Under the pieces are notes generated by a model. That model ran no database searches. It saw nothing but the letters and a program-made list of their open reading frames with translations, and was not told the origin of the DNA. A stretch of 64,000 nt of DNA from Candidatus Omnitrophota bacterium (GTDB lineage: Bacteria; Omnitrophota; Gorgyraeia; Gygaellales; Profunditerraquicolaceae). The stretch spans positions 518,379 through 582,378 of the forward strand of contig JBAZTA010000001.1 in assembly GCA_041662125.1 (NCBI GenBank), read 5' to 3'. The translations under genes were made by a program, and so were the position numbers. The stretch's first letter is position 1. Each line of letters starts with the position of its first letter. Positions 1-18,163 of the stretch are shown piece by piece.

Positions 1-24
1 CAACGCAATTCCTTTTAAGCGTTG
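1..24. repeat. GC-stem hairpin (caacgc-aattcctttta-gcgttg), a member of the conserved-loop hairpin family
   Basis: 6-bp inverted repeat around an 11-nt loop AATTCCTTTTA. The loop matches the AAT(A/T)CC(A/T)(A/T)TTA loops of the other family copies. Confidence 0.5.
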
Positions 25-35
25 GGTGTAGCAGT

Positions 36-73
36 AAGTGAAACACCCGCGCAATACCTATAAGCGCGGGGTG
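36..73. repeat. Dispersed hairpin repeat (agtgaa-ACACCCGCGC-aatacctataa-GCGCGGGGTG), copy A
   Basis: 10-bp perfect GC-rich stem with an 11-nt loop. The 37-nt segment is near-identical (1 mismatch) to 7794-7830 and it lies downstream of the dnaB stop. Confidence 0.6.
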
Positions 74-177
74 CTATCGTAAAAAACAGTAAACACTTTG
101 TAACCAGAAACCTACGTTCCTAATTTTATTTAATATATCACAATCTTTTCGAAATGCAAACTATTTTCTTTGCCGGG

Positions 178-1515
178 TTATTCCCCTTGAATGATATTTT
201 CGAACTTGGTATATTCCTTGATAAACGTCAGCTTCATCGAACCCACCGGGCCGTTACGCTGCTTAGCGATTATGACCTCCGCGATGCCCTGGTTATCCGG
301 CGTCGGATTATAATATTCTTCCCTTAAAAGCAAGACCACGACATCAGCGTCTTGCTCGATAGCGCCGGATTCGCGCAAGTCGGAAAGCTGCGGCCGGTGG
401 TCCTGCCGGGATTCGACGGCGCGGGACAACTGGCTGATAGCGATAAGCGGGACATTAAGTTCTCGCGCCAGCGCTTTTAAAGAACGAGAAATCTCTGAGA
501 TCTCAGCCTGGCGGTTATCGACGCCTAATTTGCCGCGCATCAATTGCAGGTAATCCAAGACAATAAGCTGTATATTATACTGTGATTTTAAGCGCCTGGC
601 TTTGGCGCGCAACTCCATCACTGAGATAGCCGGAGTATCGTCAATAAAGATCGGAGCCTCTGATAATTTACCCGCTGCCGCGGTTAGACGCGGCCAATCA
701 GACGTAGAAAGATACCCGGTACGCACTTTATGGGCGTCTACTTTCGCGTGAGCGCAGAGCATCCTCTGGGCCAGCTGCTCCTTGGACATTTCCAGGCTAA
801 AAAACGCGATCGGAACCTTTTCCACAATACCGGCGTATTCAGCCATACATAAAGCCAAAGCGCTCTTGCCCATTGACGGCCTTCCGGCGATAATAATCAA
901 ATCAGAAGGCTGCAGACCGGCAGTCTTCATGTCGAATTCTATAAATCCCGTCGGGATACCGGTGACATGCGCTTTTTTCTGATAAAGCCTGTCAATAGTC
1001 TCAATACTGTCTTTAATGATCTCTTTAAGATGAAGGCAGGCACCCTGGGCGCGGTGGTCCCTCACTTCAAAGATCAAAGTCTCTGCGGTATCAACCAGCT
1101 CATCGACATTACCTTCGTTCTCAAAACACATTGAAACGATTTTTGTCGCGTTATTGATCAAGCCGCGCAGCGTGTTTTTCTCTTTAACGATAGAAACATA
1201 GTGGCTGATATTGGCGGCAGTGGGGACAACGTTTACTAATTCTGTCAGGAAGCTGACTCCGCCGACCGCATCCAGCAGGCCTAAACGTTTTAATTCATCG
1301 GTCAAGGTGATCAGGTCAACTGCCCTATTTTCGCCGTAGAGGTCCGATATAACACCAAATATCCTGCGGTGCGAATCTTTGTAAAATGAAGTTTTATCTA
1401 AAGCTTCAACAGCCACAGCAATGGCCTCATCATCCATCAGCATAGAGCCCAAAACTGCCATTTCAGCCTCGAGATTTTGCGGCGGGAGTTTGTCTGCAGA
1501 TAATTCTTTAGGCAT
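178..1515 (-). CDS. dnaB: Replicative DNA helicase DnaB
   Basis: 445 aa with a DnaB N-terminal domain (EAEMAVLGSML), Walker A (GRPSMGKSA) and RecA-like C-terminal domain motifs. Confidence 0.95.
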   Translation of the reverse strand: MPKELSADKLPPQNLEAEMAVLGSMLMDDEAIAVAVEALDKTSFYKDSHRRIFGVISDLYGENRAVDLITLTDELKRLGLLDAVGGVSFLTELVNVVPTAANISHYVSIVKEKNTLRGLINNATKIVSMCFENEGNVDELVDTAETLIFEVRDHRAQGACLHLKEIIKDSIETIDRLYQKKAHVTGIPTGFIEFDMKTAGLQPSDLIIIAGRPSMGKSALALCMAEYAGIVEKVPIAFFSLEMSKEQLAQRMLCAHAKVDAHKVRTGYLSTSDWPRLTAAAGKLSEAPIFIDDTPAISVMELRAKARRLKSQYNIQLIVLDYLQLMRGKLGVDNRQAEISEISRSLKALARELNVPLIAISQLSRAVESRQDHRPQLSDLRESGAIEQDADVVVLLLREEYYNPTPDNQGIAEVIIAKQRNGPVGSMKLTFIKEYTKFENIIQGE

Positions 1516-1524
1516 GTTTTTTAG

Positions 1525-1968
1525 TTACTTCTTCACGATCCAAATCTTTATTTTTGTGGAGACCTCAGGATGCAATTTAACCATTACTTCATAAATGCCT
1601 AAAGCCTTGATCGGATCATCCAAAACAATAAGATTTTTCTCAACATTAAAGCCATCGTCTTTAAGAGCACGGGAAATATCTTGCGCCGTGACATTGGCGT
1701 ATAACTTCTCCCCTTCATGGACTAAAACAGGAAGCGTTAACGATACATTTGCCAATTTTTCTTTAAGCGCCTCTGCCTCTTGCTTTAACTTTTCCTGCTG
1801 AATATTCCTGCGCTGTATTTCCTGCTGAAGTTTATTGCGATTGGCATCGGTAGAGGCAACCGCTAATCCGCGAGGGATAAGATAATTCAAAGCATACCCG
1901 TCTTTGACTTTAACGACGGCACCCGCTTTCCCCGCTCCGGGAACATCTTTTTCTAGAATGACTTCCAT
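1525..1968 (-). CDS. rplI: 50S ribosomal protein L9
   Basis: MEVILEKDVPGAGKAGAVVKVKDGYALNYLIPRGLA is an L9 signature. The start is likely the MEVIL Met, since the ORF-track ORF begins 4 codons earlier. Confidence 0.9.
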   Translation of the reverse strand: MEVILEKDVPGAGKAGAVVKVKDGYALNYLIPRGLAVASTDANRNKLQQEIQRRNIQQEKLKQEAEALKEKLANVSLTLPVLVHEGEKLYANVTAQDISRALKDDGFNVEKNLIVLDDPIKALGIYEVMVKLHPEVSTKIKIWIVKK

Positions 1969-2037
1969 TGGCTCTCTCACTGGTTTATCCTTAAGGCGAG
2001 CGTATCCTTACCGCTCAACCCGCAGGCATTCTGTCAA

Positions 2038-2271
2038 TTACGCCTTGATATACGGCATAAGCCCCAGGAAACGGGCCTTTTTAATTTCTTGGGTGATCTT
2101 GCGTTGATGCTTGGCGCAATTGCCGGTGTTACGCGTCGAAATAATCCCCCCGCGCTCCCGCGCGAATAGTTCCAGCAATTTGATATCTTTATAATCTATA
2201 CTCTTTACTCGTTCTGCGCAAAACCGGCACGATCTTTTCCTCATCGGCAAAAAAGACCCCGGCCTTTTCAT
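2038..2271 (-). CDS. rpsR: 30S ribosomal protein S18
   Basis: CRFCAERVKSIDYKDIKLLELF...GLMPY is an S18 motif. The exact start is uncertain (candidate Mets at 2295, 2271 and 2247), so a start was chosen downstream of the ssb stop. Confidence 0.85.
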   Translation of the reverse strand: MKRPGSFLPMRKRSCRFCAERVKSIDYKDIKLLELFARERGGIISTRNTGNCAKHQRKITQEIKKARFLGLMPYIKA

Positions 2272-2284
2272 GATTTTCTTAGGC

Positions 2285-2719
2285 TTAATTCTCATTTGAT
2301 TTCTCCTCACTTTCGTCTACCCATGCTGTCTCTGTAGCATGCTCCTGTCGCGGTTCTTCAGATGACTCGACTGGCGCTGCTTTTCCGGAAGGCGCTCCTA
2401 TAAATTGCACGCGTTCCACCCGCACCTCAATGACGCTGCGTTTATTCCCCGCATTATCTTCCCATGAACGGGATTGAAGCCTGCCCTCGATAAAAAGAGG
2501 GCTTCCTTTATGTAAATACTGATTGCATGTTTCTGCCTGCTTATCCCAGACAACAGCAGTAATGAAACAAACCTCTTCTTTCAACTCCTGGTTTCTATCT
2601 TTGAATTTCCGGTTCACCGCCAGGCGCAGATTCGCCACAGCCGTACCCTGAGGAGTATAGCGCAACTCCGGGTCTTTCGTCAAATTTCCCATCAACAATA
2701 CTTTATTGAAACTGGCCAT
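2285..2719 (-). CDS. ssb: Single-stranded DNA-binding protein
   Basis: OB-fold N-terminus (VLLMGNLTKDPELRYTPQGTAVANLRLAVNR) and an acidic C-terminal tail. It sits in the rpsF-ssb-rpsR context. Confidence 0.95.
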   Translation of the reverse strand: MASFNKVLLMGNLTKDPELRYTPQGTAVANLRLAVNRKFKDRNQELKEEVCFITAVVWDKQAETCNQYLHKGSPLFIEGRLQSRSWEDNAGNKRSVIEVRVERVQFIGAPSGKAAPVESSEEPRQEHATETAWVDESEEKSNEN

Positions 2720-2837
2720 AATCCTCTCCTTTAAACCAATACTATCAAACTCGCCACAGATACGCGCGTATGTATCCCTGCGTCAATATCGGCAAACGAA
2801 ACTAACGATATCAACCAGACCAACGACATTAACGATT

Positions 2838-3131
2838 TTACGCTTTGCCCAAAACTGAAACTAAAAGCCTCAGGATATTTTCATTTAATTTATATATTTC
2901 TTTTATTTTTACGATAGCACCCGGGGCAACGCTGAAATTCATCAGGTAATAGACCCCTTCCGTCGATTTCTTGATCGGGAATGTCAATTTCCTTCGTTCT
3001 CCCCAAACGGCTGCCTGCGTAATCTCACCGTTATTCTTAATAACCGCATCCTGAATTTGAGCAAAAAGGCTTTTACGTTCTTCGTCGGATAAATCAGGTT
3101 TCGTTATAAACATCGCTTCATACTTATTCAT
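2838..3131 (-). CDS. rpsF: 30S ribosomal protein S6
   Basis: MNKYEAMFITKPDLSDEE...GVYYLMNF is typical S6. It lies upstream of ssb. Confidence 0.92.
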   Translation of the reverse strand: MNKYEAMFITKPDLSDEERKSLFAQIQDAVIKNNGEITQAAVWGERRKLTFPIKKSTEGVYYLMNFSVAPGAIVKIKEIYKLNENILRLLVSVLGKA

Positions 3132-3727
3132 TCCTGCTTTCCTTTCATTTGTTTTTTTTCTTTTTTGTTAAAGACGTTCATACTTACATCTATACCATCA
3201 CGAACCCACATTTGGCAACACTCTATCGCTTTTGCCGTTACTTCATCTAACTGTTTCTTCTCTGCCCTCGAAAAAGAAGATAACACATAATCAGAAACAA
3301 CTTTTTCTGACTTGCCGGGCCTGTCAATACCAACACGAAGGCGCGCGAACTCTTGGCTTTTGAGTGAGTCAATGATCGACTTAAGGCCGCGCTGGCCGCC
3401 AGAGGAGCCGCACGCTTTGATCCTGAGCCTGCCGAACTCCAGGTCAAGGTCATCGCAGACAATCAAAAGATCAGAGAGGTTAACCCGGTACTTACGCAGA
3501 AGAGCTCCGACGGCATTGCCCGATAGGTTCATAAAGGTACCGGGGACCGCCACGACCACGAGGTGCCCCTCAATATCGGCTTTTGCGCTTAATGCCGATA
3601 CTGCGTTATCTTTTTTTAACGCAAGCTTATAGTGCTGCGCCAAACCCTTTATTATCGAAGAACCAATGTTATGCCTGGAATGAGCATACCATATACCCGG
3701 GTTACCCAACCCCACAATTAATTTCAT
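3128..3727 (-). CDS. pth: Peptidyl-tRNA hydrolase
   Basis: MKLIVGLGNPG...HNIG...GHNGLKS-like motifs in a 199-aa protein. Confidence 0.93.
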   Translation of the reverse strand: MKLIVGLGNPGIWYAHSRHNIGSSIIKGLAQHYKLALKKDNAVSALSAKADIEGHLVVVAVPGTFMNLSGNAVGALLRKYRVNLSDLLIVCDDLDLEFGRLRIKACGSSGGQRGLKSIIDSLKSQEFARLRVGIDRPGKSEKVVSDYVLSSFSRAEKKQLDEVTAKAIECCQMWVRDGIDVSMNVFNKKEKKQMKGKQE

Positions 3728-3763
3728 GATGCTCCTACGCCAACCAATCGCCGGTGCAGCTTC

Positions 3764-4456
3764 TTATGCCGGTTTTTTCTCTTTACCTTCCGCCTCTTTA
3801 CCCTCAGGCAAGACTTCCTTCTTCTCTTTAATAACTTCAGGTTCTTTCTTCTCTTCGCCCTCAACACCTTCAACAGGAACTTCTTCTTTCATCGGAGCGG
3901 CAACTGAGAGAATGATCGAATCAGGGTCATTTAAAACTTTAATATTCGCGGAGAATACCACATCTTTAATATGGATAGCCTCACCTAATTTCAAATGGCT
4001 GACATCGACTTGAATATCTTCAGGCATCTCTGTCGGCAAACACTCAATTTCAATCTCCCAAAGGATATGTTCGAGTGAACCGCCTTCAAATTTAACACCG
4101 GGAGCCTCACCTTTGACCGTGACAGGGACACTCACCTTGATAGCTTTCGTCAAAGAGATCTCATGAAAATCGACATGGATGATATCGCCTTTTACCGGAT
4201 GATGCTGAATATCCTTGATCAAACAAGGCCGGTTTTTTGCTTTCTTATCATCTTTTATCTTAAGGGTAACGACCACATTTTCCAGCCTGTGCTCGTGCAG
4301 CAGGTGCAGCAATGCCCGATAGGCAACCTTCACCGGCTGGGCTTCTTTACCTTCTCCATAAACAACCGCCGGGATAAAATTTTTGAGGCGCAAATCTTTC
4401 GCTTTAACTCTGCCTGTTTCTTCGCGTAACTCTGCTTCCAAGACTATCTCTTCCAT
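3764..4456 (-). CDS. rplY: 50S ribosomal protein L25 / general stress protein Ctc
   Basis: N-terminal L25 domain (LEAELREETGRVKAKDLRLKNFIPAVVYG) and a Glu/Lys-rich C-terminal tail. It sits in the prs-ctc-pth context. Confidence 0.9.
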   Translation of the reverse strand: MEEIVLEAELREETGRVKAKDLRLKNFIPAVVYGEGKEAQPVKVAYRALLHLLHEHRLENVVVTLKIKDDKKAKNRPCLIKDIQHHPVKGDIIHVDFHEISLTKAIKVSVPVTVKGEAPGVKFEGGSLEHILWEIEIECLPTEMPEDIQVDVSHLKLGEAIHIKDVVFSANIKVLNDPDSIILSVAAPMKEEVPVEGVEGEEKKEPEVIKEKKEVLPEGKEAEGKEKKPA

Positions 4457-4526
4457 GGCTTCCTTTTTCCTTTCATACCTTGAATTACATTACCGTGATT
4501 TCTTAAGTTTTATGCTTTTGGTTACT

Positions 4527-5465
4527 TTAATCAAATAAAGAACTAACCGATTCTTCATTATGAATCCTCTTGATGGCTTCGCCTAAAAGGCTAGCCATTG
4601 CTAAAACTTTAATCCGGGGGTGCTTTTTATGGTCAGCGAGCGGTATACTGTCGGAAATAACCAGTTCTTTAAGGTCACAACACTGCTCTATCCGCTCAAG
4701 AGCCGGGCCGGAGAGGACACCGTGGGTTATCGCCGCGCTGATCGACTTACACTTTGCTTTCTTTAACGCCTCCACAGCTTCGATCAACGAACTGCCGGTA
4801 GCTACCAGGTCATCGACAATGATCGCGTTTTTATTCTCAACCTCGCCTAAAATATGCATTACTTCCGTCTTCTCGGGAGAATCCCGCCTTTTATCGATAA
4901 TGGCTAACCCCGCGCCAAACCTTTTGGCGTATGCGCGCGCCATTTTGATACCTCCGACATCAGGAGAAACGATAACGAGGTTATTGATCTTTTCTTTTGA
5001 AAAATAATCGACAAAAACACCAACTGCAAGCAAATGGTCTACCGGGATATCAAAAAAACCCTGGATCTGGCCGGCATGCAAATCTATCGTCAAGATACGG
5101 TCAGCACCAGCCGTCGTTAACAAATTGGCAACAAGTTTTGCGGTAATAGGCACCCGCGGCTGATCTTTACGGTCCTGGCGGGCGTAGCCGAAATAGGGAA
5201 TAACCGCCGTAATGCGGTCACTGGATGCCCTCTTTAAAGCATCGATAATGATTAAAAGCTCCATCAAATTATCATTCGTCGGAGGACAGGTCGGCTGCAC
5301 GAGGAAAACATCTTTCCCCCGGACATTATCATTTATCTTGACCCGGATCTCCCCCTCGCTGAATTTTGAAACAAACGCGTCAGACAAATTAACCTTCAGG
5401 TATTTGCAAATATCTTTGGCTAAAGCCGGATGGGCATTACCGCTAAATACTGCTAATTTATCCAT
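4527..5465 (-). CDS. prs: Ribose-phosphate pyrophosphokinase (PRPP synthetase)
   Basis: Full-length similarity to PRPP synthetase, including the PRPP-binding loop DLVATGSSL and the RQDRK flexible loop. Confidence 0.95.
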   Translation of the reverse strand: MDKLAVFSGNAHPALAKDICKYLKVNLSDAFVSKFSEGEIRVKINDNVRGKDVFLVQPTCPPTNDNLMELLIIIDALKRASSDRITAVIPYFGYARQDRKDQPRVPITAKLVANLLTTAGADRILTIDLHAGQIQGFFDIPVDHLLAVGVFVDYFSKEKINNLVIVSPDVGGIKMARAYAKRFGAGLAIIDKRRDSPEKTEVMHILGEVENKNAIIVDDLVATGSSLIEAVEALKKAKCKSISAAITHGVLSGPALERIEQCCDLKELVISDSIPLADHKKHPRIKVLAMASLLGEAIKRIHNEESVSSLFD

Positions 5466-5472
5466 AATGATC

Positions 5473-6744
5473 TCACTTTTTATGTATCTGTGCTTTTGCC
5501 TTCAAGGGTTGAGCAGGGACGCCGACCACAGTCTGCCCCGCAGCCACATGATGATTCCGCCTCACTACTGATCCGGCACCTGTCTTAGCCGCTTTCCCGA
5601 TACGCACGGGAGCGATTAACACCGTATCAGAACCAATAAACGCCCCATCTTCTATAACGGTGATATTTTTATGCGTCCCGTCGTAGTTGGCGGTAACCGT
5701 GCCTGCCCCAATATTAACTGATTTTCCGATACGGCAATCGCCGATATAAGAAAAATGCTTTGCTAAAGTTTTTGACCCTAATGCAGAACGGGAAATTTCC
5801 AGGAAGTTTCCTATGACAACTTCATCGTTTAAAACCGTGCCTTCGCGCAAACGGGCGAAAGGGCCGACTTTGCAGGATTTTCCAATTTTAACATTTTTTT
5901 CAATAACTGTAAAGGGATAAATTGTAGTATCCTGCCCTATTTTTACTCCATAACTGATAAAGGCCGAGTCAGGGTCAATGATACTTACCCCGGCTTTCAT
6001 AAATTCTTCATTAATACGCTGCTGCATGATTTTTTGCGCCTTGGACAATTCTAACCGGGAATTAACCCCCATAGTTTCAAGAACATCCGGTGAATCCACG
6101 CTTTCAATCACATCCCCCTGTTTATAAAGGATCCCGATAACATCGGTCAGATAATATTCTTTTTTACGGTTGTTCGGCTTAACTCTTTTGAGGGCACTCA
6201 CCAGCTTTTTCATATCAAAACAAATAATGCCGGTATTGATTTCTTTAATTCCCTTCTGGAAATCATCAGCGTCTTTTTCCTCAACGATCCCGTAAATACT
6301 GCAATACGCGTCCCTGAGGACCCTACCATACCCAACGGGTTTTTCAATTTTAGCCGTTAACATGGTAGCCGCGGCGCCAGAATCTGCATGGCGCTTGATC
6401 AATTTCGCGATCGTCTGCTTCTGTAATAACGGAATATCGCCATAGAGGACGATGACCGAACCGCTAAAACCTTTCAAAAGCGGCAAAGCTTCTTTCACGG
6501 CATCGGCAGTGCCTAAGAGTTTTTTCTGGATCACGGTTTGAGAAGCATTACCAATAAAATCCCTGACATCATCGGCCTTAAACCCCAAAACAGTAACGGT
6601 TTTCTTTATTCTTAAACTCGCGACCAGATCCAGGACATACCCAAGCATCGGCCTGCCGCAGACCTTATGCAAAACCTTAGGCACCTCTGATTTCATCCGG
6701 GTGCCTTTACCTGCTGCCAATATTATTGCTGCGATGTTTTTCAT
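5473..6744 (-). CDS. glmU: Bifunctional UDP-N-acetylglucosamine pyrophosphorylase / glucosamine-1-phosphate N-acetyltransferase GlmU
   Basis: AIILAAGKGTRMKS nucleotidyltransferase motif plus C-terminal left-handed beta-helix hexapeptide repeats. The start is likely the MKNIAA Met. Confidence 0.93.
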   Translation of the reverse strand: MKNIAAIILAAGKGTRMKSEVPKVLHKVCGRPMLGYVLDLVASLRIKKTVTVLGFKADDVRDFIGNASQTVIQKKLLGTADAVKEALPLLKGFSGSVIVLYGDIPLLQKQTIAKLIKRHADSGAAATMLTAKIEKPVGYGRVLRDAYCSIYGIVEEKDADDFQKGIKEINTGIICFDMKKLVSALKRVKPNNRKKEYYLTDVIGILYKQGDVIESVDSPDVLETMGVNSRLELSKAQKIMQQRINEEFMKAGVSIIDPDSAFISYGVKIGQDTTIYPFTVIEKNVKIGKSCKVGPFARLREGTVLNDEVVIGNFLEISRSALGSKTLAKHFSYIGDCRIGKSVNIGAGTVTANYDGTHKNITVIEDGAFIGSDTVLIAPVRIGKAAKTGAGSVVRRNHHVAAGQTVVGVPAQPLKAKAQIHKK

Positions 6745-6774
6745 AAGTAATAGCTGTCCTGCTACGCCCTTCAA

Positions 6775-6818: not shown

Positions 6819-7061
6819 CTAAAGAAACCTTCGTTTTAAAAATGCAAACCCTGAACCTGATTTAAGATATTTCTCAAATTCTTCTGCGCGGGCCTTACGC
6901 TTAAACGCAATATATGTCTGTAATCCCCACGGCATATAGCGTTTTGTGTATAACGAATCCCCACTATTGTGTTCTTGTATTCTACGCTCTAAATTCTGAG
7001 TAATGCCTATATAATATCTAAGGGGATATTTCTTACTTGTTAAAATATATACAATATACAT
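6819..7061 (-). CDS. GIY-YIG nuclease family protein (YhbQ/UPF0213-like small endonuclease)
   Basis: MYIVYILTSKK..YYIGITQNLERRIQEHN is a GIY-YIG core. The first ATG lies two codons inside the ORF-track start. Confidence 0.85.
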   Translation of the reverse strand: MYIVYILTSKKYPLRYYIGITQNLERRIQEHNSGDSLYTKRYMPWGLQTYIAFKRKARAEEFEKYLKSGSGFAFLKRRFL

Positions 7062-7067
7062 ACGCAA

Positions 7068-7272
7068 TTCCTGCGTAGCCCCACCGAGGTTTTACATTTT
7101 TAACGGCGAAGCAGAATTGTTCCTGCGTAGCCCCACCGCAGCTTTACATGTTGATGGGCGAAGCAGAAAAGTTCCTGCGAAGCCCTACCATCATTTAACT
7201 TATCAATGGGCGAAGCAGAAAAGTTCCTGCGTAGCCCTACCATCATTTAACTTATCAATGGGCGAAGCAGAA
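7068..7272. repeat. Four tandem copies of a ~57-bp repeat (ttcctgcgtagccccaccg-N18-ggcgaagcagaaaag) abutting the 3' end of tRNA-Gln
   Basis: Four units were read directly. Units 3 and 4 are near-identical, and units 1 and 2 share the conserved ends but differ in the central ~18 nt. Each unit starts and ends with near-inverted segments (cctgcgtagcc / ggcgaagcagg). Confidence 0.85.
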
Positions 7273-7343
7273 CTGGGACGCATGGACTCGAACCATGATA
7301 GCGAGACCCAAATTCTCGTGTCCTACCATTGGACGACATCCCA
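7273..7343 (-). tRNA. tRNA-Gln (anticodon UUG)
   Basis: Minus-strand cloverleaf TGGGATG-TC-GTCC/AATGGTA/GGAC-A-CGAGA/ATTTGGG/TCTCG-CTAT-CATGG/TTCGAGT/CCATG-CGTCCCA-G, with U1:A72 and G73 as in bacterial tRNA-Gln. CCA is not encoded. Confidence 0.9.
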
Positions 7344-7358
7344 AAATAACATTATAAT

Positions 7359-7775
7359 CTATAAGTCAGCATCCCCGAATTCACTGGGTTTACCGGTCTT
7401 TTTCTCTGTCTCATATGCTTCCAGGACTTTCTTCTGCAGAGATTCACGGAAAGCCTGTGTTATCGGATGAGCAATATCCTTATGTTCTGACTGAGCGAAT
7501 GCACCTGCATCCGGCCCCACAGGACGGGCCGGTACGCTTAACTGCCCTCCACACTGGTTGCAAAATTTCGAACGCGCTTCATTCTTAAATCCGCATTTCG
7601 AACAGGACTGCTTAATCTTACGAGAGGGCATGGCGATAAACAATTCGCTTGTCCCCTGAATAACCTTGATATTCCTCACTACAAATACATCATCAAAAGT
7701 AACCGTAGCGTATGCCTTTAGTTTCTTGTCGGGTGACTCCCTTAAGAAGATTTTAACTTCAGTTATATCCATAGT
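7359..7775 (-). CDS. spoVG: SpoVG family protein with an inserted zinc-ribbon segment
   Basis: MDITEVKIFLRESPDKKLKAYATVTFDDVFVVRNIKVIQGTSELFIAMPSRK...DIAHPITQ matches SpoVG. A ~45-aa insertion, CSKCGFKNEARSKFCNQCGG (CxxC...CxxC), sits between the AMPSRK and DIAHPI segments. The start is at the MDIT Met. Confidence 0.85.
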   Translation of the reverse strand, partial: TMDITEVKIFLRESPDKKLKAYATVTFDDVFVVRNIKVIQGTSELFIAMPSRKIKQSCSKCGFKNEARSKFCNQCGGQLSVPARPVGPDAGAFAQSEHKDIAHPITQAFRESLQKKVLEAYETEKKTGKPSEFGDADL

Positions 7776-7793
7776 AGCACCCCTTTCACAGAA

Positions 7794-7830
7794 AGTGAAA
7801 CACCCGCGCATTACCTATAAGCGCGGGGTG
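7794..7830. repeat. Dispersed hairpin repeat, copy B (agtgaa-ACACCCGCGC-attacctataa-GCGCGGGGTG)
   Basis: 36 of 37 nt identical to 36-73. It lies in the spoVG leader, downstream of ispE. Confidence 0.6.
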
Positions 7831-7834
7831 GCCC

Positions 7835-8758
7835 TTAAATCGTCCTTGTTACCGCCACACGTAAAAACTGATTTTCTCTCTTAAGCTGGCGAGAAAATAT
7901 TCGAGCTTCTTTTTGAGAAGGAACAAGAGCAAAAACCGACGGCCCGCTTCCAGACATTAAACTGGGCCGTAACCCTAAAAAAGCAAATCTTTTTTTCAGA
8001 AGGCTTACTTCAGGATAGACTTTTACCGTAACAAATTCTAAGCTGTTAAAGAGAGCTTTTCCAATCAAAGCAACGTCTTTTTTCTTTAATAATGAACACA
8101 ATATTGTAACATTTTGTTTAGGGATTGTCAACCTCAGCGGGCGCCCAAAATACTGATCCCATTTCTTATAAATAAGCGGCGTAGAAACATGCAAAGGCAG
8201 GACAGCCAAAACATGCCACAAACCCGTAGCTTTAAGCGAATGGACCGGTTTAATCTTTTCTCCGCGGCCGCTTCCTAAAGCAAAAGGGGAATCATACATA
8301 AAAAAAGGCACATCACTGCCGATATTTTTGGCTATAGCAACTAATTTATTTCGCGTAAGCCCAAGTTTCCAAAGGTGATTCAGCCCTAAAAGAACCCCGG
8401 CGGCATCACTTGACCCTCCGCCCATCCCGGCGCCTACAGGAATACGCTTGGTAATCTTTATCATAACCCCTTTATTGATATTCAAGCTCTCCTGCAAAAA
8501 TTGAGCGCTCTTATACGCCAGGTTTGAACTATCCTTAGGGATACCCGGATGATTTGATTTAATTTCTATTCTTTTGCCCGGCAAAGAAGATAAAATAAGA
8601 GTATCATGCAGGTCAATCCGCTCAAAAAGAGTCTTTATCTCGTGGTAATTATCAGGTCGTTTCTTAATAACCTCAAGAAAAAGGTTAAGTTTCGCGTAAC
8701 AACTGACCTCCACGCCTCTGGAACCAAGCAGTTTCAGCGCTGAATGTAATTGACCCAT
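7835..8758 (-). CDS. ispE: 4-diphosphocytidyl-2-C-methyl-D-erythritol kinase
   Basis: GHMP kinase motif PVGAGMGGGSSDAAGVL and an N-terminal AKLNLFLEV. It is adjacent to spoVG as in Bacillus. Confidence 0.9.
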   Translation of the reverse strand: MGQLHSALKLLGSRGVEVSCYAKLNLFLEVIKKRPDNYHEIKTLFERIDLHDTLILSSLPGKRIEIKSNHPGIPKDSSNLAYKSAQFLQESLNINKGVMIKITKRIPVGAGMGGGSSDAAGVLLGLNHLWKLGLTRNKLVAIAKNIGSDVPFFMYDSPFALGSGRGEKIKPVHSLKATGLWHVLAVLPLHVSTPLIYKKWDQYFGRPLRLTIPKQNVTILCSLLKKKDVALIGKALFNSLEFVTVKVYPEVSLLKKRFAFLGLRPSLMSGSGPSVFALVPSQKEARIFSRQLKRENQFLRVAVTRTI

Positions 8759-9714: not shown

Positions 9715-9719
9715 CTCAG

Positions 9720-10541: not shown

Positions 10542-10576
10542 CAGAATAATTATTTCTCAAACGCCCTGCGCTCATA

Positions 10577-11860: not shown

Positions 11861-11884
11861 TACTTCCTCCTCGATAATACAATC

Positions 11885-12766
11885 TTAATAAATTACCTTG
11901 TTCAAAGGATATTCAATGATCCCCTCTGCTCCGGCTTTCTTTAATTCGGGGATCAATTGCCTGACAACCTTTTCATCAATCACCGTCTCCAGCGCGAACC
12001 ACCCCGTTTCAGAAAGCCCTGAAACGGTAGGATTCTTTAAGGCAGGGAGAACAGCGATAACTCTTGCAAGGTCCTTTTTCCTGACATTCATCTTCAAACC
12101 GACTTTTTCTTCAGCAGCAATCGCCCCTTTTAATAAAACAGAGATCTGCTCCATTTTATCCTTCTTCCAGCTATCTTTAACCGCCGTCTTATTGGCGATA
12201 AATTGCGTGGTTGATTCACAGATAGTGGCGATTTCAACTAATTTATTCGCCCGCAGGCTCCTGCCGGTTTCTGTCAGCTCCACAATAGCATCGACGAGGC
12301 CAGAACTTACCTTGACTTCAGTCGCTCCCCAGCTAAATTCCACATCGACTTTAACCTTATGCTGGGCGAAAAAATCCCTGGTGACACCGACAAGCTCGGT
12401 AGCAATACGCTTATTATGCAGATCCCGGACCGTTTTCATCCCTGAATTCTCCGGAACTGCCAAAACCCAGCGGACCTTGCTTAAACTCTGCTTGGAATAC
12501 ATTAAATCGGTGATACGATAAACTGAAGACTTATTTTCCATGATCCAATCATTTCCGGTAACACCACAATCCAAAACCCCCTCCTGGACATACCGAGACA
12601 TCTCCTGTGCCCGCAATAAAATCGCTTCTATTTCCGGGTCATCGACCGAAGGAAAATACGAACGCTCAGACGATAAAGAAACATTAAAACCGGCTTTCTT
12701 AAACATCCTGAATGTCGACTCCTGAAGACTCCCCTTAGGGAGCCCGAGTTTTAATATTTTTTTCAT
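11885..12766 (-). CDS. hisG: ATP phosphoribosyltransferase, long form
   Basis: 293 aa with a HisG catalytic domain ([10 protein letters not shown]..., [17 protein letters not shown]) plus a C-terminal regulatory domain. Confidence 0.92.
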
Positions 12767-13018
12767 CGCATCCTACTGTTAGCCACAGGCGTGGGACTTA
12801 CTTAAAAGAGAATAAACCATCACCGGATAAAAACGCTCAATGATGCCAAATTTAACACGGCATGTTATTATACAAGGTGTGTAATAATTTGTAAAGAAAA
12901 AATTGCAAAAACTAAAATTTCCCTTATAATAAATCTTTATAGCTTTCAAGCGCTTAGAGGACACATAAGCGCACACTCATCTAAACTTCACGATACTTGC
13001 CCACAGGGAGGAATTTCA

Positions 13019-14434
13019 ATGTTTAAGCTGTTACGTAACAAGAAAACCCAGAAAACAATCTGGATTATATTAGCAATTATTATCGTTCCGGCGTTTATTT
13101 TCTGGGGCTCAAGCAGCATGGTGCGCAACCCCGGAGAAAACACAAGCTTCTCCCTTAAGATTTTCGGAAAGGACATTCCTTATGCCGCCTATCAGGATTC
13201 ACTGGCAGCGGTGCGCAACCAGGCACTGCTCCAATTTGGAGAAAGTTTTGACCAAATGCAGAAATTCCTGAATTTAGAAAGGCAGGCAATCGAACGGCTG
13301 GTCTTAATCAGCGAAGCAGGCAAACGCAAAATAAAGGTCAGCGACAAAGAAGTCGTCGATTTTATTCAGGCGTTTGCGCCTTTTCAAAACAAAGGACAGT
13401 TTGACAACCGGGCATACGCATACATACTGCAATATGTATTCCGCACCCAACCCCGGATATTTGAAGAACAAACCAGGCAAAACCTGACGATAGCAAAACT
13501 TTATGAAACTATTACGAAAAACGTAACCGTGAGCGATCAGGAAGTCAAAGACGCCTACGCGAAAGAAAACGAACAAATAAGCATCAGCTATATCGCCAGC
13601 CTATACGCTGACTTTACAAAAGAGGCCACAGCAACCGATGAAGAATTAAAGGATTATTTTTCAAAGAACTCGCTTTCTTTTAAGCAACCGCTTTCATTCA
13701 ACACCTCCTACATTGTTTTTGAGAACGAAAACCAGCAAAATGATATTACCACCAGGATCAACAAAGAGAAAAGCCTGGAAAAAGCTGTATCAGGATTAAA
13801 CCTTACCATCCAGGAAACAGGACTATTCAGCCAGGTAGACCCTATTCCGGGAATCGGCTGGAGCCCTCAGATTACTTCGATCATTTCAAAACTTGATCTA
13901 GGGCAAATCTCAAACGTCATCCCCTTCGATAAAAAATTCTATATATTCCAGCTTAAAGAGCGAAAAGACCCTTACATTCCCGATTTTGAAGCTATAAAAG
14001 AAAAGGTAAAAGAAACTGTTATTAAAAACAAGGCAAAGAATATCGCGAAAACAAAAGCTGAAAACTGCTTAACAATACTCCGGGATGCCGCGAAAATAAG
14101 CCTTAAAACAATCGATTTCGACAAGATCAGTAAAGACGCAGGGCTAAAATCAGGGACAACCGCCCCTTTTAAATTCAGCAGCTATATCGAAAACATAGGC
14201 GCCTCTGACGAATTCTATACCGCGGCGCAGTCATTAAAAGAAGACGAATTCAGCGCGGTCATCGATTCCCCGTCCGGGTACTTCATCATCAAGGCAAAAT
14301 CGAAGATACCCGTTGATGAAACAAAGTTTAAAGCAGAAAAAGAGGAATTTACGCAAAAACTTTTGTCGGGAAAGAAACAAAATGATTTCTCAAAGTTTGC
14401 CGAAGAATTAATGAAAAAGGCGCAGGCAGGATAA
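13019..14434 (+). CDS. Periplasmic chaperone PpiD-like (SurA N-terminal domain protein with a degenerate PPIase domain)
   Basis: N-terminal TM anchor (IWIILAIIIVPAFIFW), a SurA_N-like domain and a rotamase-like C-terminal region. GGGAGG RBS 7 nt upstream of the ATG. It is the only plus-strand gene in this part of the window. Confidence 0.75.
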   Translation: MFKLLRNKKTQKTIWIILAIIIVPAFIFWGSSSMVRNPGENTSFSLKIFGKDIPYAAYQDSLAAVRNQALLQFGESFDQMQKFLNLERQAIERLVLISEAGKRKIKVSDKEVVDFIQAFAPFQNKGQFDNRAYAYILQYVFRTQPRIFEEQTRQNLTIAKLYETITKNVTVSDQEVKDAYAKENEQISISYIASLYADFTKEATATDEELKDYFSKNSLSFKQPLSFNTSYIVFENENQQNDITTRINKEKSLEKAVSGLNLTIQETGLFSQVDPIPGIGWSPQITSIISKLDLGQISNVIPFDKKFYIFQLKERKDPYIPDFEAIKEKVKETVIKNKAKNIAKTKAENCLTILRDAAKISLKTIDFDKISKDAGLKSGTTAPFKFSSYIENIGASDEFYTAAQSLKEDEFSAVIDSPSGYFIIKAKSKIPVDETKFKAEKEEFTQKLLSGKKQNDFSKFAEELMKKAQAG

Positions 14435-14451
14435 ATCGGTTTAGAAAAAAG

Positions 14452-14502
14452 AAAAAGCCCTGTTTTCGTATCGGATCACGATATAAAACAGGGCTTTTTC
14501 TT
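14452..14502. terminator. Bidirectional rho-independent terminator between convergent ppiD-like and ferredoxin/por genes
   Basis: Hairpin aagccctgtttt...aaaacagggctt with T-tracts on both strands. Confidence 0.8.
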
Positions 14503-14512
14503 AAAACGGCCC

Positions 14513-14695
14513 TTAACTTACTTTTATGGAATTAACCGGGCACTGCTCGGCTATTTCGGCGAGATTATGAGTTGAACATACCTGGGCTTTCACATGAGCT
14601 ATACCATCACCCTGGACTTCAAAAACCTCAGGACAAGCCTGCTCACATAAACCACAACCAACACAAGTCGAAGCATCAACGCTAACTTTTGCCAT
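14513..14695 (-). CDS. 4Fe-4S ferredoxin (small single-cluster type)
   Basis: 60 aa with CVGCGLCEQACP plus a distal C....CP motif. Confidence 0.85.
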   Translation of the reverse strand: MAKVSVDASTCVGCGLCEQACPEVFEVQGDGIAHVKAQVCSTHNLAEIAEQCPVNSIKVS

Positions 14696-14729
14696 TGTAT
14701 TATCCCCCCTTGGAATGAATATAACCTTT

Positions 14730-15620
14730 TTAAGCCGCTGGCGGCACAGCTTCTATCTTAAGGTTATATTTTTTAATATTATTATCAGCGACTTCCTGGA
14801 TCTTCTTGACCAGGTCAACATTATTCAACAAATGCTTAAATCTTCCCTGCGTCTTCAAATATTCTTCCACCGGGAGACATTTGATCTGCCTTTTAGAAAC
14901 CAGAACCCCATTTTCATATTCAAAAATCGGATATAAACCAGTTTCGACCGCTAATTTCGCGATATCAAAAGTCCCTTTCGATTCATGGCGCCACCCCAAC
15001 GGGCACGGCACATGGATCTGGATATATTTCGGGCCTTTGATGGATAATGCTTTTTTCACCTTACGCTGAATGTCCTGGGGATAACCTACTGTTGCGGTAG
15101 CAACGTAGGGAATCCCGTGCGCGAGGACGATTTCAGGCATTGGTTTCTTAGGACGCAGATTCCCCACAGAATTACTGCCAATAGGGCTCGTTGATGTGTT
15201 CGCCTCAAAAGGCGTCAGGCCGCTACGCTGAACGCCGGTATTCATATATGCTTCATTGTCATAACAGACATACAAAATATCATGCCCGCGTTCCAGCATG
15301 CCGGAAAGCGCTTGTAACCCGATATCAGCTGTCCCGCCGTCACCGCCTTGGGCAATAACATTGATCCCCTCTTTTTTCCCCAAGTAACGTAAAGCTGCCT
15401 CTACCCCAGAAGCAACTGCGGCGCAATTTTCAAACAAAGAGTGGATAAACGGGACTCCCCAGGCAGACTCAGGATATTTAGTAGAGAATACTTCAAGGCA
15501 TCCGGTATTATTCGCTACGATAGTATTCGGGCCGCTGGCATCAACAACCAAACGCGCCGCTATTGACTGCCCGCAACCGGAACATGCGGTATGGCCACTG
15601 ACAAATAAATGTTTACTCAT
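14730..15620 (-). CDS. porB: Pyruvate/2-oxoacid:ferredoxin oxidoreductase, beta (TPP-binding) subunit
   Basis: GHTACSGCGQ and GGDGGTADIG TPP-binding motifs. Confidence 0.92.
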   Translation of the reverse strand: MSKHLFVSGHTACSGCGQSIAARLVVDASGPNTIVANNTGCLEVFSTKYPESAWGVPFIHSLFENCAAVASGVEAALRYLGKKEGINVIAQGGDGGTADIGLQALSGMLERGHDILYVCYDNEAYMNTGVQRSGLTPFEANTSTSPIGSNSVGNLRPKKPMPEIVLAHGIPYVATATVGYPQDIQRKVKKALSIKGPKYIQIHVPCPLGWRHESKGTFDIAKLAVETGLYPIFEYENGVLVSKRQIKCLPVEEYLKTQGRFKHLLNNVDLVKKIQEVADNNIKKYNLKIEAVPPAA

Positions 15621-16794
15621 ATTTTTCCTTTAATAACTCTGGTTTTAAATCAATAAATTCCAAACAACGCTCTTTCGGCGTAAGCAAACGAAAAACCTCT
15701 TTAATCGAATTCCTGGTAATATCGCGCCCGCCCAAACCAACCACAAAACTGCTGATCACCCCCGGCTGTTTCTTTTTTCCGAAAAACACAGCCTTGATCT
15801 CTGAAGAAAGCGGCGCATACGAACCTAAAGACAATGCCCGGTCCAGAACAGCAACTTTAGGGATATTTTTCAAAGCTTCATAGATCTGCGCTGAAGGAAA
15901 CGGACGATAGGAAGTGATCTTAAGCAATCCGACTTTTTTACCTTTTGCCCGCAATTCATCAACAACATCCTTAACAGTCCCGCAGACAGACCCCATTGCT
16001 ACGATCACCCGCTCGGCATCTTTCGTCCGGTATTCTTCGATAAGCCCGTTATAGGTACGGCCAAAAACCTTTGAGAATTCAGCGGTGATCTTCGGTATCA
16101 ATTCCAAGGCCTGCTTCTGCGTCTCTTGGATCGCGTAACGTGCTTCCGTATAATAATCAGGATCAGCCAATGGCCCGAGTGTCGCCGGATTTTCAACATC
16201 CAATTTATACAACGGCTTGTAAGGAGGCAGGAACTTATCAACCTGCTCCTGTGAAGGCATATCGACCGTTTCGATGCCATGCGTCAAAATAAACCCATCC
16301 ATACAAACCATAACGGGAAGCATGATCGATTTATCCTCAGCCAAGCGATAGCCGATAAAATGAAGATCAACTGCTTCCTGATTATCTTCCGCGTATAATT
16401 GTATCCAACCGGCATCACGCACGGAAATCGAATCCTGCTGGTCGTTCCAGATATTGATCGGCGCCGAAATAGCCCGGTTAGCGCACGTCATGACTAATGG
16501 CAGCCGCATACCGGCAATATTAAAAACCACTTCCGCCATAAGCAATAACCCTTGAGAACTGGTCGCGGTATACGCGCGGACTCCCGTCGCTACAGCCCCC
16601 AAAACAACCGACGCCGCTGAATGCTCTGATTCGACATTGACAAACTGCGTATTGAGTTCGTTGTCTGCCACAAATTGAGCTAACTCTTCAACAATATGCG
16701 TCTGAGGCGTAATCGGATAAGCAGAAATAACGCCGGGTTTACATAATTTTACTGCCTCTGCAACCGCTAATGAACCCTCTAGAAATTCTTTCAT
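15613..16794 (-). CDS. porA: Pyruvate/2-oxoacid:ferredoxin oxidoreductase, alpha subunit
   Basis: 393 aa of PFOR domains I/II. It lies between the delta and beta subunits. Confidence 0.9.
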   Translation of the reverse strand: MKEFLEGSLAVAEAVKLCKPGVISAYPITPQTHIVEELAQFVADNELNTQFVNVESEHSAASVVLGAVATGVRAYTATSSQGLLLMAEVVFNIAGMRLPLVMTCANRAISAPINIWNDQQDSISVRDAGWIQLYAEDNQEAVDLHFIGYRLAEDKSIMLPVMVCMDGFILTHGIETVDMPSQEQVDKFLPPYKPLYKLDVENPATLGPLADPDYYTEARYAIQETQKQALELIPKITAEFSKVFGRTYNGLIEEYRTKDAERVIVAMGSVCGTVKDVVDELRAKGKKVGLLKITSYRPFPSAQIYEALKNIPKVAVLDRALSLGSYAPLSSEIKAVFFGKKKQPGVISSFVVGLGGRDITRNSIKEVFRLLTPKERCLEFIDLKPELLKEKYE

Positions 16795-16796
16795 AT

Positions 16797-17096
16797 CTAA
16801 TCCTTTTCTTCCTCTTTTATCATTTCGATATCTTTTTTAGGGCAAATCACCGCGCAGCTTCCGCACCCTTTACAGTAAGCAAAATCACAGCGATACGTAT
16901 TCTTTTCTTCCCCTTCAATGCATGCCTCCGGGCAAATTAAAACACACAACTTACAGGCAATACAATTCTTCTGAAGGAATTTGGGGCGCACCTCAACCCT
17001 CCATGAACCTGTTTTGTTATTCTTACTTGAACCTGGCTTTGAAACAAGAGGACCAAACATGTCAATTCTCCTATAATTTTGCTTTGATAAACTCAT
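16797..17096 (-). CDS. porD: Pyruvate:ferredoxin oxidoreductase delta subunit (2x[4Fe-4S] ferredoxin-like)
   Basis: CIACKLCVLICPEAC and CKGCGSCAVICP motifs. Confidence 0.9.
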   Translation of the reverse strand: MSLSKQNYRRIDMFGPLVSKPGSSKNNKTGSWRVEVRPKFLQKNCIACKLCVLICPEACIEGEEKNTYRCDFAYCKGCGSCAVICPKKDIEMIKEEEKD

Positions 17097-17616
17097 AGCC
17101 CTGTTTCACAGCATCAATATTGCCTGCCTGGGCTTTACCCGCGAACCTCTTCTTTATTGCCTCAACTAAAGTATCTAAGCTAATTTCTCCGGTAGCAGCA
17201 GCATAAGCTCCAAGCAAAGCAGTATTACCTAACGGCCTGCCGATTGTTTTCATGGCAATCTCATTGGCGGAAATACAATAGACTTTCTGTGTTGCCTTTA
17301 TTTTAGGAAGTTGGAAACCTTCTTTAGCGTTAACAATAGCAATACCATTATCTTTCAACCCTGAAAAACAGTTAAAACCGCGCATCAAGGTAGAATCGAC
17401 AATAATCACATAATCAGGTTCATAAACCTGGCTTCGTAACCGCACCGGCTTAGAATCCACACGCACAAAAGCGTTCATGGGTGCGCCCATACGTGCCGCG
17501 CCAAAATGGGGAAAAGCGTAAGGGTAACTGCCCTGATGAAAATAAGCATACCCTAATAAAGATGCCGTGGTTATCGCACCTTGCCCCGCGCGGGCATGAA
17601 TGCGTATCTCTTTCAT
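17071..17616 (-). CDS. porG: Pyruvate:ferredoxin oxidoreductase gamma subunit
   Basis: MKEIRIHARAGQGAITTASLLGYA is typical of PorG. It is the first gene of the porGDAB order. Confidence 0.9.
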   Translation of the reverse strand: MKEIRIHARAGQGAITTASLLGYAYFHQGSYPYAFPHFGAARMGAPMNAFVRVDSKPVRLRSQVYEPDYVIIVDSTLMRGFNCFSGLKDNGIAIVNAKEGFQLPKIKATQKVYCISANEIAMKTIGRPLGNTALLGAYAAATGEISLDTLVEAIKKRFAGKAQAGNIDAVKQGYEFIKAKL

Positions 17617-17751
17617 ATCTAAACTCCTTTTCTCTTGCAGTGGAACCCTTACAAACGAAAGTCAGGGATTCCTTACTTTTTGCTTCTTAGAGCGAACCCC
17701 TCCGAAGCAACACCGCTACTTTACTTGTCGATTTGCGTAGGAGGGTAAAAA

Positions 17752-17790
17752 CAGATTTTTATCTTATTACTTTTGGATACACTTGTCAAT
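17752..17790 (-). promoter_or_regulatory. Candidate sigma70-type promoter for the por operon (TTGACA-N17-TAAGAT on the minus strand)
   Basis: The plus-strand ttgtcaa at about 17780-17786 is the -35 in reverse complement. Only hexamer matching was done, with no transcript data. Confidence 0.3.
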
Positions 17791-17794
17791 TGAT

Positions 17795-18020
17795 TTTTTG
17801 CTGCAGAAAGCAGCACACCGGCGCAATTCCAATTAGCGCCGGGTGTAAGCAGGAAGCCGTACACCCGCGCAATACCAATTAGCGCGGGGTGTTGCGCAGC
17901 ACCCCAGCTAAATAGGTATGCTGGGTGCGCCCTTTCTGGGCAGAAAGCCGCACACCTGCGCAGAAAGCGCGCACTTGGCATCCGATAAGCCAAAGTGCGG
18001 CGCAATTCCAATTACCCGCT
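17795..18020. repeat. Cluster of at least 8 consecutive GC-rich hairpins: three of the conserved-loop family (17815-17846 aattccaatta; 17861-17892 aataccaatta; 17999-18019) plus four small GC-AGAAA-GC hairpins (17800-17814, 17938-17951, 17957-17973, and another at 18143-18158) and two others
   Basis: The inverted repeats were read directly. Loop sequences are conserved and the stems differ by compensatory changes (acaccggcgc/gcgccgggtgt versus acacccgcgc/gcgcggggtgt). Confidence 0.6.
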
Positions 18021-18160: not shown

Positions 18161-18163
18161 ACG

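Follow-up and report, generated by a model that had tools for sequence, protein, structure and literature searches.

The closest described counterparts of the element reported here are the repetitive extragenic palindromic (REP) sequences of Proteobacteria, with their compound forms (BIMEs and REPINs) and RAYT transposases. These are short, GC-rich, imperfect extragenic palindromes with conserved recognition features, dispersed, often clustered and co-transcribed with genes, and a REP family is usually confined to one species or genus. Here we analyze a family of dispersed hairpins in a 64,000-nt stretch of a Candidatus Omnitrophota genome (assembly GCA_041662125.1, contig JBAZTA010000001.1, positions 518,379 to 582,378 of the forward strand; hereafter referred to as the window). 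The family resembles REPs in each of these properties except the narrow host range (it spans at least 55 species), as well as in a copy number that varies between relatives and in a host clade that carries single-copy, vertically inherited Y1 transposase genes. On the other hand, it is devoid of the 5′ GT(A/G)G/GTAG motif (its flank consensus is AAGA), its unit is composed of two unlike hairpins, its copies run mostly in one orientation, as tandem or nested arrays instead of the inverted pairs typical of BIMEs and REPINs, and they are placed against Shine-Dalgarno sequences rather than after gene ends. Moreover, the Y1 genes that we found are not flanked by the element.

A comparable mixture of similarities and differences is seen with the miniatures of IS200/IS605 elements (PATEs) and with IS608 and ISDra2, which move by the single-strand "peel and paste" mechanism. 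Common to all of them are imperfect hairpins with an extrahelical base as a likely recognition feature, the lack of an obvious target-site duplication, a pronounced preference for one strand, which would be in keeping with the lagging-strand template, and a 5′ flank rich in purines (AAGR) that is similar to the sequence past the 3′ end. The Omnitrophota element differs in having no fixed target tetranucleotide, unlike end hairpins and no cognate TnpA that we could find, and at ~48 nt it is far shorter than PATEs. The ERIC/IRU repeats of enterobacteria, Correia/NEMIS of Neisseria, BOX/RUP of pneumococcus and MIRUs of mycobacteria are likewise intergenic (often intra-operon), gene-oriented, transcribed as stem-loops and polymorphic between strains, but they are 40-150+ nt long, genus-specific, and have terminal inverted repeats with defined target duplications (e.g. 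TA). To our knowledge, none of them systematically abuts Shine-Dalgarno sequences or nests in its own loop. Finally, the GGA hairpins recognized by CsrA/RsmA and the boxB hairpin of phage lambda also expose a purine-containing loop (GGA/GGU) at the tip of a stable stem that precedes a Shine-Dalgarno sequence; the Omnitrophota element, in contrast, accepts GGU like GGA, occurs outside leaders and in antisense orientation, and is insertionally polymorphic.

Omnitrophota are uncultured, mostly ultra-small organisms, and next to nothing is known of their mobile DNA and of the signals that govern their gene expression; a literature search that included Omnitrophota genome papers returned no description of the element. 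It is a previously undescribed repeat, which resembles the REP/MITE type (MITE, miniature inverted-repeat transposable element) but combines a two-hairpin unit, placement at the Shine-Dalgarno sequence, nesting in its own loop and presence in at least 55 species. We consider it probable that these hairpins are small non-autonomous insertional repeats of the REP/MITE-like kind, co-transcribed with genes and restricted to Candidatus Omnitrophota. A REP-like element was also the first of the options listed in a preceding interpretation of the window from its nucleotides alone (hereafter the sequence-only reading), and it is the one that the comparisons below favor; the other options listed there (RNA stability or processing signals, binding sites for a dedicated protein) would not be required to account for the observations.

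Architecture of the repeat unit

The sequence-only reading described single GC-rich hairpins. The hairpin is real, but the description was too narrow: the actual repeat is a unit of ~45-50 nt that comprises two hairpins, is informative when read on the gene strand (minus in the window) and is set against a Shine-Dalgarno sequence. A short purine-rich lead (often AAGA) precedes the big hairpin, (A)CACCC-N5-TWAWWGGWAWT-N5′-GGTGT, in which a GC-rich helix of 10 bp with a single bulged C carries an 11-nt loop. The small hairpin (5 bp of free sequence and a tetraloop) directly adjoins its 3′ side; in the genome of the window it has the form NNNNC-TTTCT-GNNNN, and the CAGAAAG/CTTTCTG motif, which is part of it, occurs in the window 9 times versus 2.5 expected. 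The small-hairpin sequences form classes common to several genomes (TGTCTAGGTAGACA, GCGCTAGGTAGCGC, TCGCCAGGTGGCGA and others). A second subfamily of equal architecture, CACCCGGCC-(T)TATCGGAT-GGCCGGTGT, was seen in L023, L027, L058, L106 and L049 (L numbers designate the surveyed loci). In the predicted RNA folds both hairpins form and the Shine-Dalgarno sequence is left unpaired, with a predicted stability of −22 to −25 kcal/mol per unit.

Selection acting on both structure and loop, which the sequence-only reading had proposed from compensatory changes between stems, is borne out by strong covariation over 114 distinct copies. The variants CGCGC/GCGCG, GGCGC/GCGCC and AACGC/GCGTT are all found in the window, and in the entire set 97.7% of the cells of the big helix are paired. 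For example, position 10/30 is occupied by CG in 56 copies, by GC in 43 and by AU in 8, and position 11/29 by GC in 86 and by AU in 24. None of 500 shuffles attained the observed covariation score, and sliding the register by 1-3 columns makes it collapse. Covariation extends to each of the five pairs of the small hairpin. Because the copies behind the covariance model had been chosen with a pattern, part of the loop conservation is a product of this choice; still, loops of copies that fall outside the search pattern remain near the consensus (e.g. TTAGCGGAATT, TAATCGGAATT).

A palindrome with an AT-rich center, some copies of which are located near promoters and one near oriC/dnaA (L042), might alternatively be an operator, bound in double-stranded form by a dimeric regulator or a nucleoid protein, or else a chance assortment of GC-rich palindromes. 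We find this hardly credible. The half-sites vary in a compensatory manner, and their sequence as such is not conserved. The asymmetric bulge is fixed in all copies, gain and loss involve a block that includes the second, unrelated hairpin, and the anchoring to a downstream Shine-Dalgarno sequence does not fit an operator; the shuffle controls and the occurrence of at least 109 loci in a single phylum rule out chance. The covariation, together with the filled and empty sites (see below), effectively refutes this interpretation.

The stability of the hairpins and a start that is mostly 0-40 nt past the stop codon of a co-directional upstream gene would also be in line with terminators lacking a U-tract, or with stabilizers of the 3′ end of the upstream message, like E. 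coli REPs versus 3′ exonucleases. This possibility appears very unlikely. The sequence-only reading had already set the hairpins apart from classical terminators, and rightly so: no U-tract (T-run) is found 3′ of them, and a terminator scan does not call them. Neither a conserved 11-nt loop nor a fixed bulge is characteristic of terminators, the position of the unit is tied to the Shine-Dalgarno sequence that follows it rather than to the preceding stop codon, and copies are found inside obvious operons (e.g. porA-porB in L074). In the window, a classical T7-tailed terminator already precedes the cluster formed by units D, E and F (described below).

Approximately 40% of the copies have GGT loops (e.g. 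TAATTGGTATT, TTAAAGGTATT) versus GGA, and the wobble pairs (G·U 10, A·C 9) show no strand preference. The latter balance fits DNA-level maintenance or mutational noise better than RNA-specific selection. The frequent GGU led us to reject a CsrA-type GGA loop; pairing of the loop with the 3′ end of 16S rRNA, likewise rejected, extends upon inspection to 3-5 bp at most, in some variants only. With Rfam 15, the search of the window at the gathering threshold returned only tRNAs, and a permissive scan of positions 17600-18400 (E up to 10) gave only sub-threshold matches, mostly to eukaryotic miRNA precursors.

Some small hairpins have peculiarities of their own. In L030:2575-2590, L012:3940-3955 and both copies of L065 the small hairpin is CCTCC-NGGT-GGAGG, where the 3′ arm is the GGAGG Shine-Dalgarno sequence of the downstream gene paired with the anti-Shine-Dalgarno-like CCUCC; judging by the sequence, such variants could mask the ribosome-binding site instead of leaving it free. 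A perfect or near-perfect palindrome of 20-22 nt (CCTGCCTGCCGGCAGGCAGG) is present within the small hairpin in some genomes and missing from the orthologous position in others (L104:2150-2172 compared with L098; L109:3120-3150 and L040:1545-1580 compared with positions 30-42 of the window). It appears to be a second, still smaller insertional palindrome.

Phyletic distribution

The genome scan covered one genome per species and used the pattern ACACC-N5-AWTWCCWWTWA-N5-GGGTG with a free inner stem, for which ~9 chance matches are expected. It yielded at least 112 stretches, with canonical base-paired copies at no fewer than 109 loci in at least 55 assemblies. Among the matches listed, all but one of these loci are labeled as Omnitrophota/Omnitrophica or as "uncultured Planctomycetales" metagenome-assembled genomes (MAGs), and three other genome matches (in Methanolobus, Kriegella and Flavobacterium) have non-pairing stems. 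A scan of viral contigs gave only two chance matches, also with non-pairing stems. The family neither ends with the window nor dissolves into copies with random loops, the two outcomes that the sequence-only reading had set against its own proposal. To judge from the genomes scanned, it is restricted to Candidatus Omnitrophota.

The relatives were surveyed as 8-kb blocks around the matches, with crude calls of open reading frames (ORFs). In 729 kb of these seeded loci the covariance model has 139 matches; 14 of 151 copies were flagged by the crude caller as located inside ORFs, some of them overlapping spurious ORFs. Among the genomes surveyed, those nearest to that of the window are the ones of L040/L116 and L109, with 86-92% DNA identity in the flanks.

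Insertional polymorphism

Recent mobility had been suggested by the sequence-only reading from a 37-nt core common to two copies. These copies (units B and C) do differ at just one position of the core, and mobility is further supported by orthologous sites that are filled, empty or nested. At the spoVG site, compared over 80 orthologous metagenome loci, one unit is present in the window and ~78 of the 80 loci have none. The site is empty in the closest relative, L115 (SpoVG 94% identical), where it reads TAA-AGGAGGGGCGCT-ATG; in L116 (SpoVG 92% identical) it is occupied by a nested array of ~230 nt, the loop of the orthologous outer unit having been invaded by more units. An all-against-all comparison of flanks extended this to 64 orthologous comparisons: in 35 of them at least 35 nt are missing from the other genome, in 13 that genome is longer and in 16 the lengths are equal.

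The base-level alignment of 14 filled/empty pairs revealed an indel of 44-52 nt that comprises the big and the small hairpin together. It occupies the spacer, rich in purines, that directly precedes the Shine-Dalgarno sequence, or occasionally lies 3′ of that sequence, and in L074 and L092 the insertion parts the native Shine-Dalgarno sequence from the start codon. The junctions in these pairs display 0-4 nt of A/G-rich microhomology, at times with a few filler bases, and a left flank AAGA or AAGG in ~25%; the consensus of the 5′ flank is A-A-G-A (A in 61% at position −1, G in 52% at position −2). A strict target-site duplication was considered and rejected, an exact AAGA/AAGA being observed in one pair (L074 versus L018) and not in general.

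Empty sites, all read on the minus strand, also exist in the window itself. The 9-nt spacer between rplI and dnaB (CTAAAAAAC, 1516-1524) harbors a unit in L040 and L109, and the spacer between a stop codon and AGGAGG-ATG at 11861-11882 harbors one in L113. Directly upstream of the porB start (AAAGGAAAAAT-ATG, 15621-15632) a 48-nt unit is present in L074, and the site is empty in L018, L046, L075 and L102.

Nested arrays are organized as (5′ arm + TWAWWGG)n ... (small hairpin + WAWT + 3′ arm)n, as in L057 upstream of acpP (n=3), L043, L049 and L077. The numbers of 5′ and 3′ halves match, the covariation of the arms tracks the nesting, and the predicted folds are nested helices; this form is the expected outcome of repeated insertion after the GG of the loop. 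Tandem copy number varies as well, the dnaB-bamA spacer having two units in the window and in L040 and a single one in L109. The arrays are head-to-tail or nested; copies on both strands were observed in 6 loci only, and the window contains a single inverted neighbor pair (units E and G).

Position relative to genes

Of 117 copies, 63 have an AGGAG-type Shine-Dalgarno sequence that begins 9-15 nt past GGTGT, most commonly at 12-13 nt, that is, typically at or beside the foot of the small hairpin, and in 52 of these 63 the start codon of an ORF of at least 40 codons follows within the next 3-13 nt. The favored sites are very short A/G-rich spacers that lead from a stop codon to the next Shine-Dalgarno sequence. 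By the crude ORF calls ~90% of the copies are oriented with the genes (107 versus 11 for the downstream and 116 versus 13 for the upstream gene). The downstream genes are mutually unrelated (82 Pfam families in 52 proteins, none in more than 2 of the 52), and their products include GroES, ferritin, SHMT, MetK, PurB, phosphate-binding proteins (PBP), L20 and SpoVG. A gene-specific leader or riboswitch was rejected based on this diversity and on the absence of the element from most spoVG loci.

At groES (L097, L107) the order of elements is promoter, CIRCE operator, repeat unit, Shine-Dalgarno sequence; the unit, standing between the CIRCE operator and the Shine-Dalgarno sequence, is therefore transcribed. 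Visible TATAAT/−10 boxes are found 8-41 nt upstream, and since this distance varies, the fixed point of reference for the element is the Shine-Dalgarno sequence rather than the start of transcription. Promoter readings examined by eye (sigma-70 −35/−10 boxes spanning the loop and the small hairpin, sigma-54 GG-N10-GC, ECF-type GGAAT) were rejected, because the would-be −10 box falls in the freely covarying small hairpin and TATAAT boxes occur at no fixed distance.

Such a placement would be expected for a cis-acting RNA module of the host, whose loop and bulge would bind an Omnitrophota RNA-binding protein or nuclease, or contact the ribosome, and which, together with the mini-hairpin, would set translation, processing or 5′ stability, its spread being secondary. 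Besides the adjacency to the Shine-Dalgarno sequence and the orientation with genes, this explanation is consistent with transcription of the groES element, with the single-stranded state of the Shine-Dalgarno sequence in predicted folds, with a loop conserved in at least 55 species and with many downstream genes being typically abundant or often highly expressed. We nevertheless consider it unlikely. Presence or absence differs in 48 of the 64 close-orthologue comparisons, nearly all spoVG orthologues manage without the element, ~10% of the copies are antisense to genes, fragments and nested copies are common, and insertions displace native Shine-Dalgarno sequences (L074, L092). Units D, E and G of the window are outside 5′ UTRs (untranslated regions), between a terminator and a promoter. 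The wobble pairs show no excess of G·U over A·C, and the proportion of GGU loops is contrary to CsrA-type recognition. A host RNA function is possible as an exaptation and is weakened as the primary explanation.

Proposed mechanism and search for a transposase

For the favored interpretation, an insertional REP/MITE-like repeat, the recognition signal would lie in the outer stem, which is invariant, together with the bulge, the conserved loop and the freely covarying inner stem. The folded single strand would be bound in trans by an enzyme that acts in the manner of HUH/Y1 transposases (RAYT, TnpA of IS200/IS605), and the strand bias would fit action on the lagging-strand template. Once inserted, the unit would be transcribed in the 5′ UTR or intercistronic RNA as two stable hairpins with a free Shine-Dalgarno sequence; copies would be tolerated because the Shine-Dalgarno sequence is left free, and they may buffer or stabilize the downstream message.

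Several observations weigh against this interpretation. The junctions of the 14 filled/empty pairs exhibit no fixed target-site duplication or target tetranucleotide. The genes are co-oriented with GC skew, almost all in one direction, so that the strand bias is not assignable to replication over transcription. The high conservation in at least 55 species and the tight adjacency to the Shine-Dalgarno sequence could reflect host selection on an RNA function. As to the enzyme, E. coli RayT used as a phmmer query detected two Y1_Tnp genes among all ORFs of the surveyed loci, both in element-bearing MAGs (L080 and L085). Neither is flanked by the element, each having different inverted repeats of its own. 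By nhmmer, the element is absent from six loci (partial genomes) syntenic with the L085-type gene. A transposase located between inverted copies was considered as well and rejected, the genes found there being housekeeping ones (dnaA, POR operon, phoU, nadE, pstS; POR, pyruvate:ferredoxin oxidoreductase).

The two Y1 genes are of some interest in themselves. The one in L085 (368-1051, minus strand) encodes a 228-aa member of an IS200-like Y1_Tnp family that is widespread in Omnitrophota and single-copy (also L196-L201, gene at 3001-3687). Its neighborhood in every locus examined is tyrS - Y1_Tnp - PQ-loop - rmlA, and most copies are bracketed by 16-bp inverted repeats (TAGACAGTTTACGTAA). This family shows RAYT-like domestication with no visible link to the element. 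The gene in L080 (4174-4748) codes for a 191-aa Y1 transposase between two direct copies of a long hairpin (CTAACCAGGTTA...TAACCTGGTTAG; flanks 4108-4150 and 4727-4775), and it looks like an IS200/IS605-type element.

A bolder combination, in our view rather doubtful, is a "standard 5′ UTR cassette" that propagates itself: the two hairpins, moving as one module, would target the purine tract of ribosome-binding sites and would be kept because a dedicated Omnitrophota nuclease or RNA-binding protein, recognizing the bulged stem and the UAAUUGGAAUU loop, processes polycistronic transcripts or sets downstream stability or translation. If true, the repeat would be nature's equivalent of the synthetic hairpin insulators that are placed before ribosome-binding sites. 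In a related scenario, the repeat may use a new hairpin-guided insertion mechanism that chooses Shine-Dalgarno-like sequences, including the GG of its own loop. Should its placement indeed result from target choice, homing to Shine-Dalgarno-like sequences and to the repeat's own loop would be without precedent among known small repeats.

A 48-nt element that is present in at least 55 species and gained or lost between near relatives provides a marker of recent genome dynamics and a handle for finding the mobilizing enzyme, e.g. by phyletic profiling over complete genomes. It also offers a natural experiment, the same gene being available with and without two stable hairpins right before its ribosome-binding site. 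In practical terms, such repeats will complicate the assembly of Omnitrophota genomes, the calling of gene starts and the discovery of non-coding RNAs in this phylum.

Units of the window and neighboring features

The window contains five intact units, one edge-cut unit and one fragment, and the covariance-model scan found no additional copies in its remaining 46 kb. Units B, C, D and E constitute a 42-nt direct-repeat family with 76-95% identity. GCGC-N11-GCGC occurs in the window 6 times versus 1.08 expected (4 of the 6 are family members), and the loop pattern AWTWCCWWTWA 11 times versus 3.3 expected. The flanking genes (dnaB, rplI, an ispE-like gene, spoVG and the POR operon) are all on the minus strand. 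The sequences that the sequence-only reading had listed as copies are all present, two of them in a form other than the one described, and the list lacked one further copy.

Unit A (1-29, minus strand; nhmmer match 2-30) is a big hairpin cut at the window edge (ACACCCAACGC / TTAAAAGGAATT / GCGTTG...), with the stem variant AACGC/GCGTT and a 12-nt loop. The hairpin previously placed at 1-24 does belong to the family but is not whole, being an edge-cut unit whose 5′ arm reaches position 29. Its counterpart in L040 is a complete unit, where the small hairpin is followed by an AGGGG Shine-Dalgarno sequence and then by the ATG of a bamA-like gene. Unit B (30-73, minus strand; 50.8 bits) has its big hairpin at 43-73 (CACCCCGCGC TTATAGGTATT GCGCGGGTGT) and a degenerate small-hairpin linker at 30-42 (TTCACTTACTGCT). 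Units A and B are arranged in tandem downstream of dnaB, between it and the bamA-like gene.

Unit C (7785-7834, minus strand; 49.5 bits) consists of the lead GGGC (7831-7834), the big hairpin (7800-7830) and the small hairpin TTCACTTTCTGTGAA (7785-7799). It occupies the whole spacer from the ispE stop codon (7835-7837) to the spoVG Shine-Dalgarno sequence AGGGG (7780-7784), the spoVG ATG being at 7770-7772. Both hairpins are formed in its predicted fold and the main Shine-Dalgarno run GGGG (7781-7784) is unpaired.

The remaining units (D, E, G and F) are clustered; a classical terminator delimits the cluster on one side and, just downstream of unit D, the POR operon promoter TTGACA-17-TAAGAT (17789-17761) on the other. 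Unit D (17800-17846, minus strand; 61 bits) has a big hairpin at 17815-17846 with the stem GGCGC/GCGCC and the loop TAATTGGAATT, and a small hairpin GCTGC-TTTCT-GCAGC at 17800-17814. Unit D forms a tandem with a period of 46 nt with unit E (17847-17892, minus strand; 46.9 bits), which has its big hairpin at 17861-17892 and a degenerate small hairpin at 17847-17860. Unit G (17899-17941), overlooked by the sequence-only reading, as were the small hairpins adjoining the listed copies, is an inverted copy on the plus strand, GCACCCCAGC TAAATAGGTAT GCTGGGTGC plus the small hairpin GCCC-TTTCT-GGGC (covariance-model match 17896-17949, 19.7 bits, E=0.004). It adds the stem variant CAGC/GCTG, and both of its hairpins are present in the predicted fold.

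Fragment F (17938-18014, minus strand) corresponds to the hairpin that had been placed at 17999-18019. The loop is indeed exact (TAATTGGAATT, 18004-18014), but its flanks are not complementary: the 5′ arm has been lost, and the 3′ arm, starting with GCGCC at 17999-18003, is split by a nested unit of the second subfamily. The covariance-model match is accordingly to the loop only (8.9 bits). The nested unit comprises GCACTTTGGC-TTATCGGAT-GCCAAGTGC at 17971-17998 and the small hairpin GCGCTTTCTGCGC at 17957-17969. Beyond this insertion the 3′ arm continues with GGTGT (17951-17955), followed by the small hairpin of the fragment (17938-17950).

Clusters of the element are located upstream of the POR operon in two genomes, at 17793-18019 in the window and in L102:5382-5500, with different orientations; in L074 a unit is found between porA and porB. 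Just ahead of the cluster in the window (18022-18145, minus strand) are two long hairpins built on the repeated motif AAGACCGGG/CCCGGTCTT, the second of which, with its T7, is the classical intrinsic terminator of an ORF for a 64-aa zinc-finger protein (18164-18358).

A different repeat family is represented at 7068-7272 (minus strand), where ~4 tandem copies of a hairpin-like 52-nt unit (CTGCTTCGCCC ... GGGCTACGCAG) come directly after tRNA-Gln (7272-7344) and are followed by an ORF for a GIY-YIG nuclease (6819-7067). The SpoVG protein encoded next to unit C (7362-7772, minus strand) has a zinc-ribbon segment (Pfam DZR/Zn_Ribbon, ~residues 70-92 of the long ORF) inserted within the SpoVG domain, and its orthologues, with 45-94% protein identity, align with it over the full length, including this segment.

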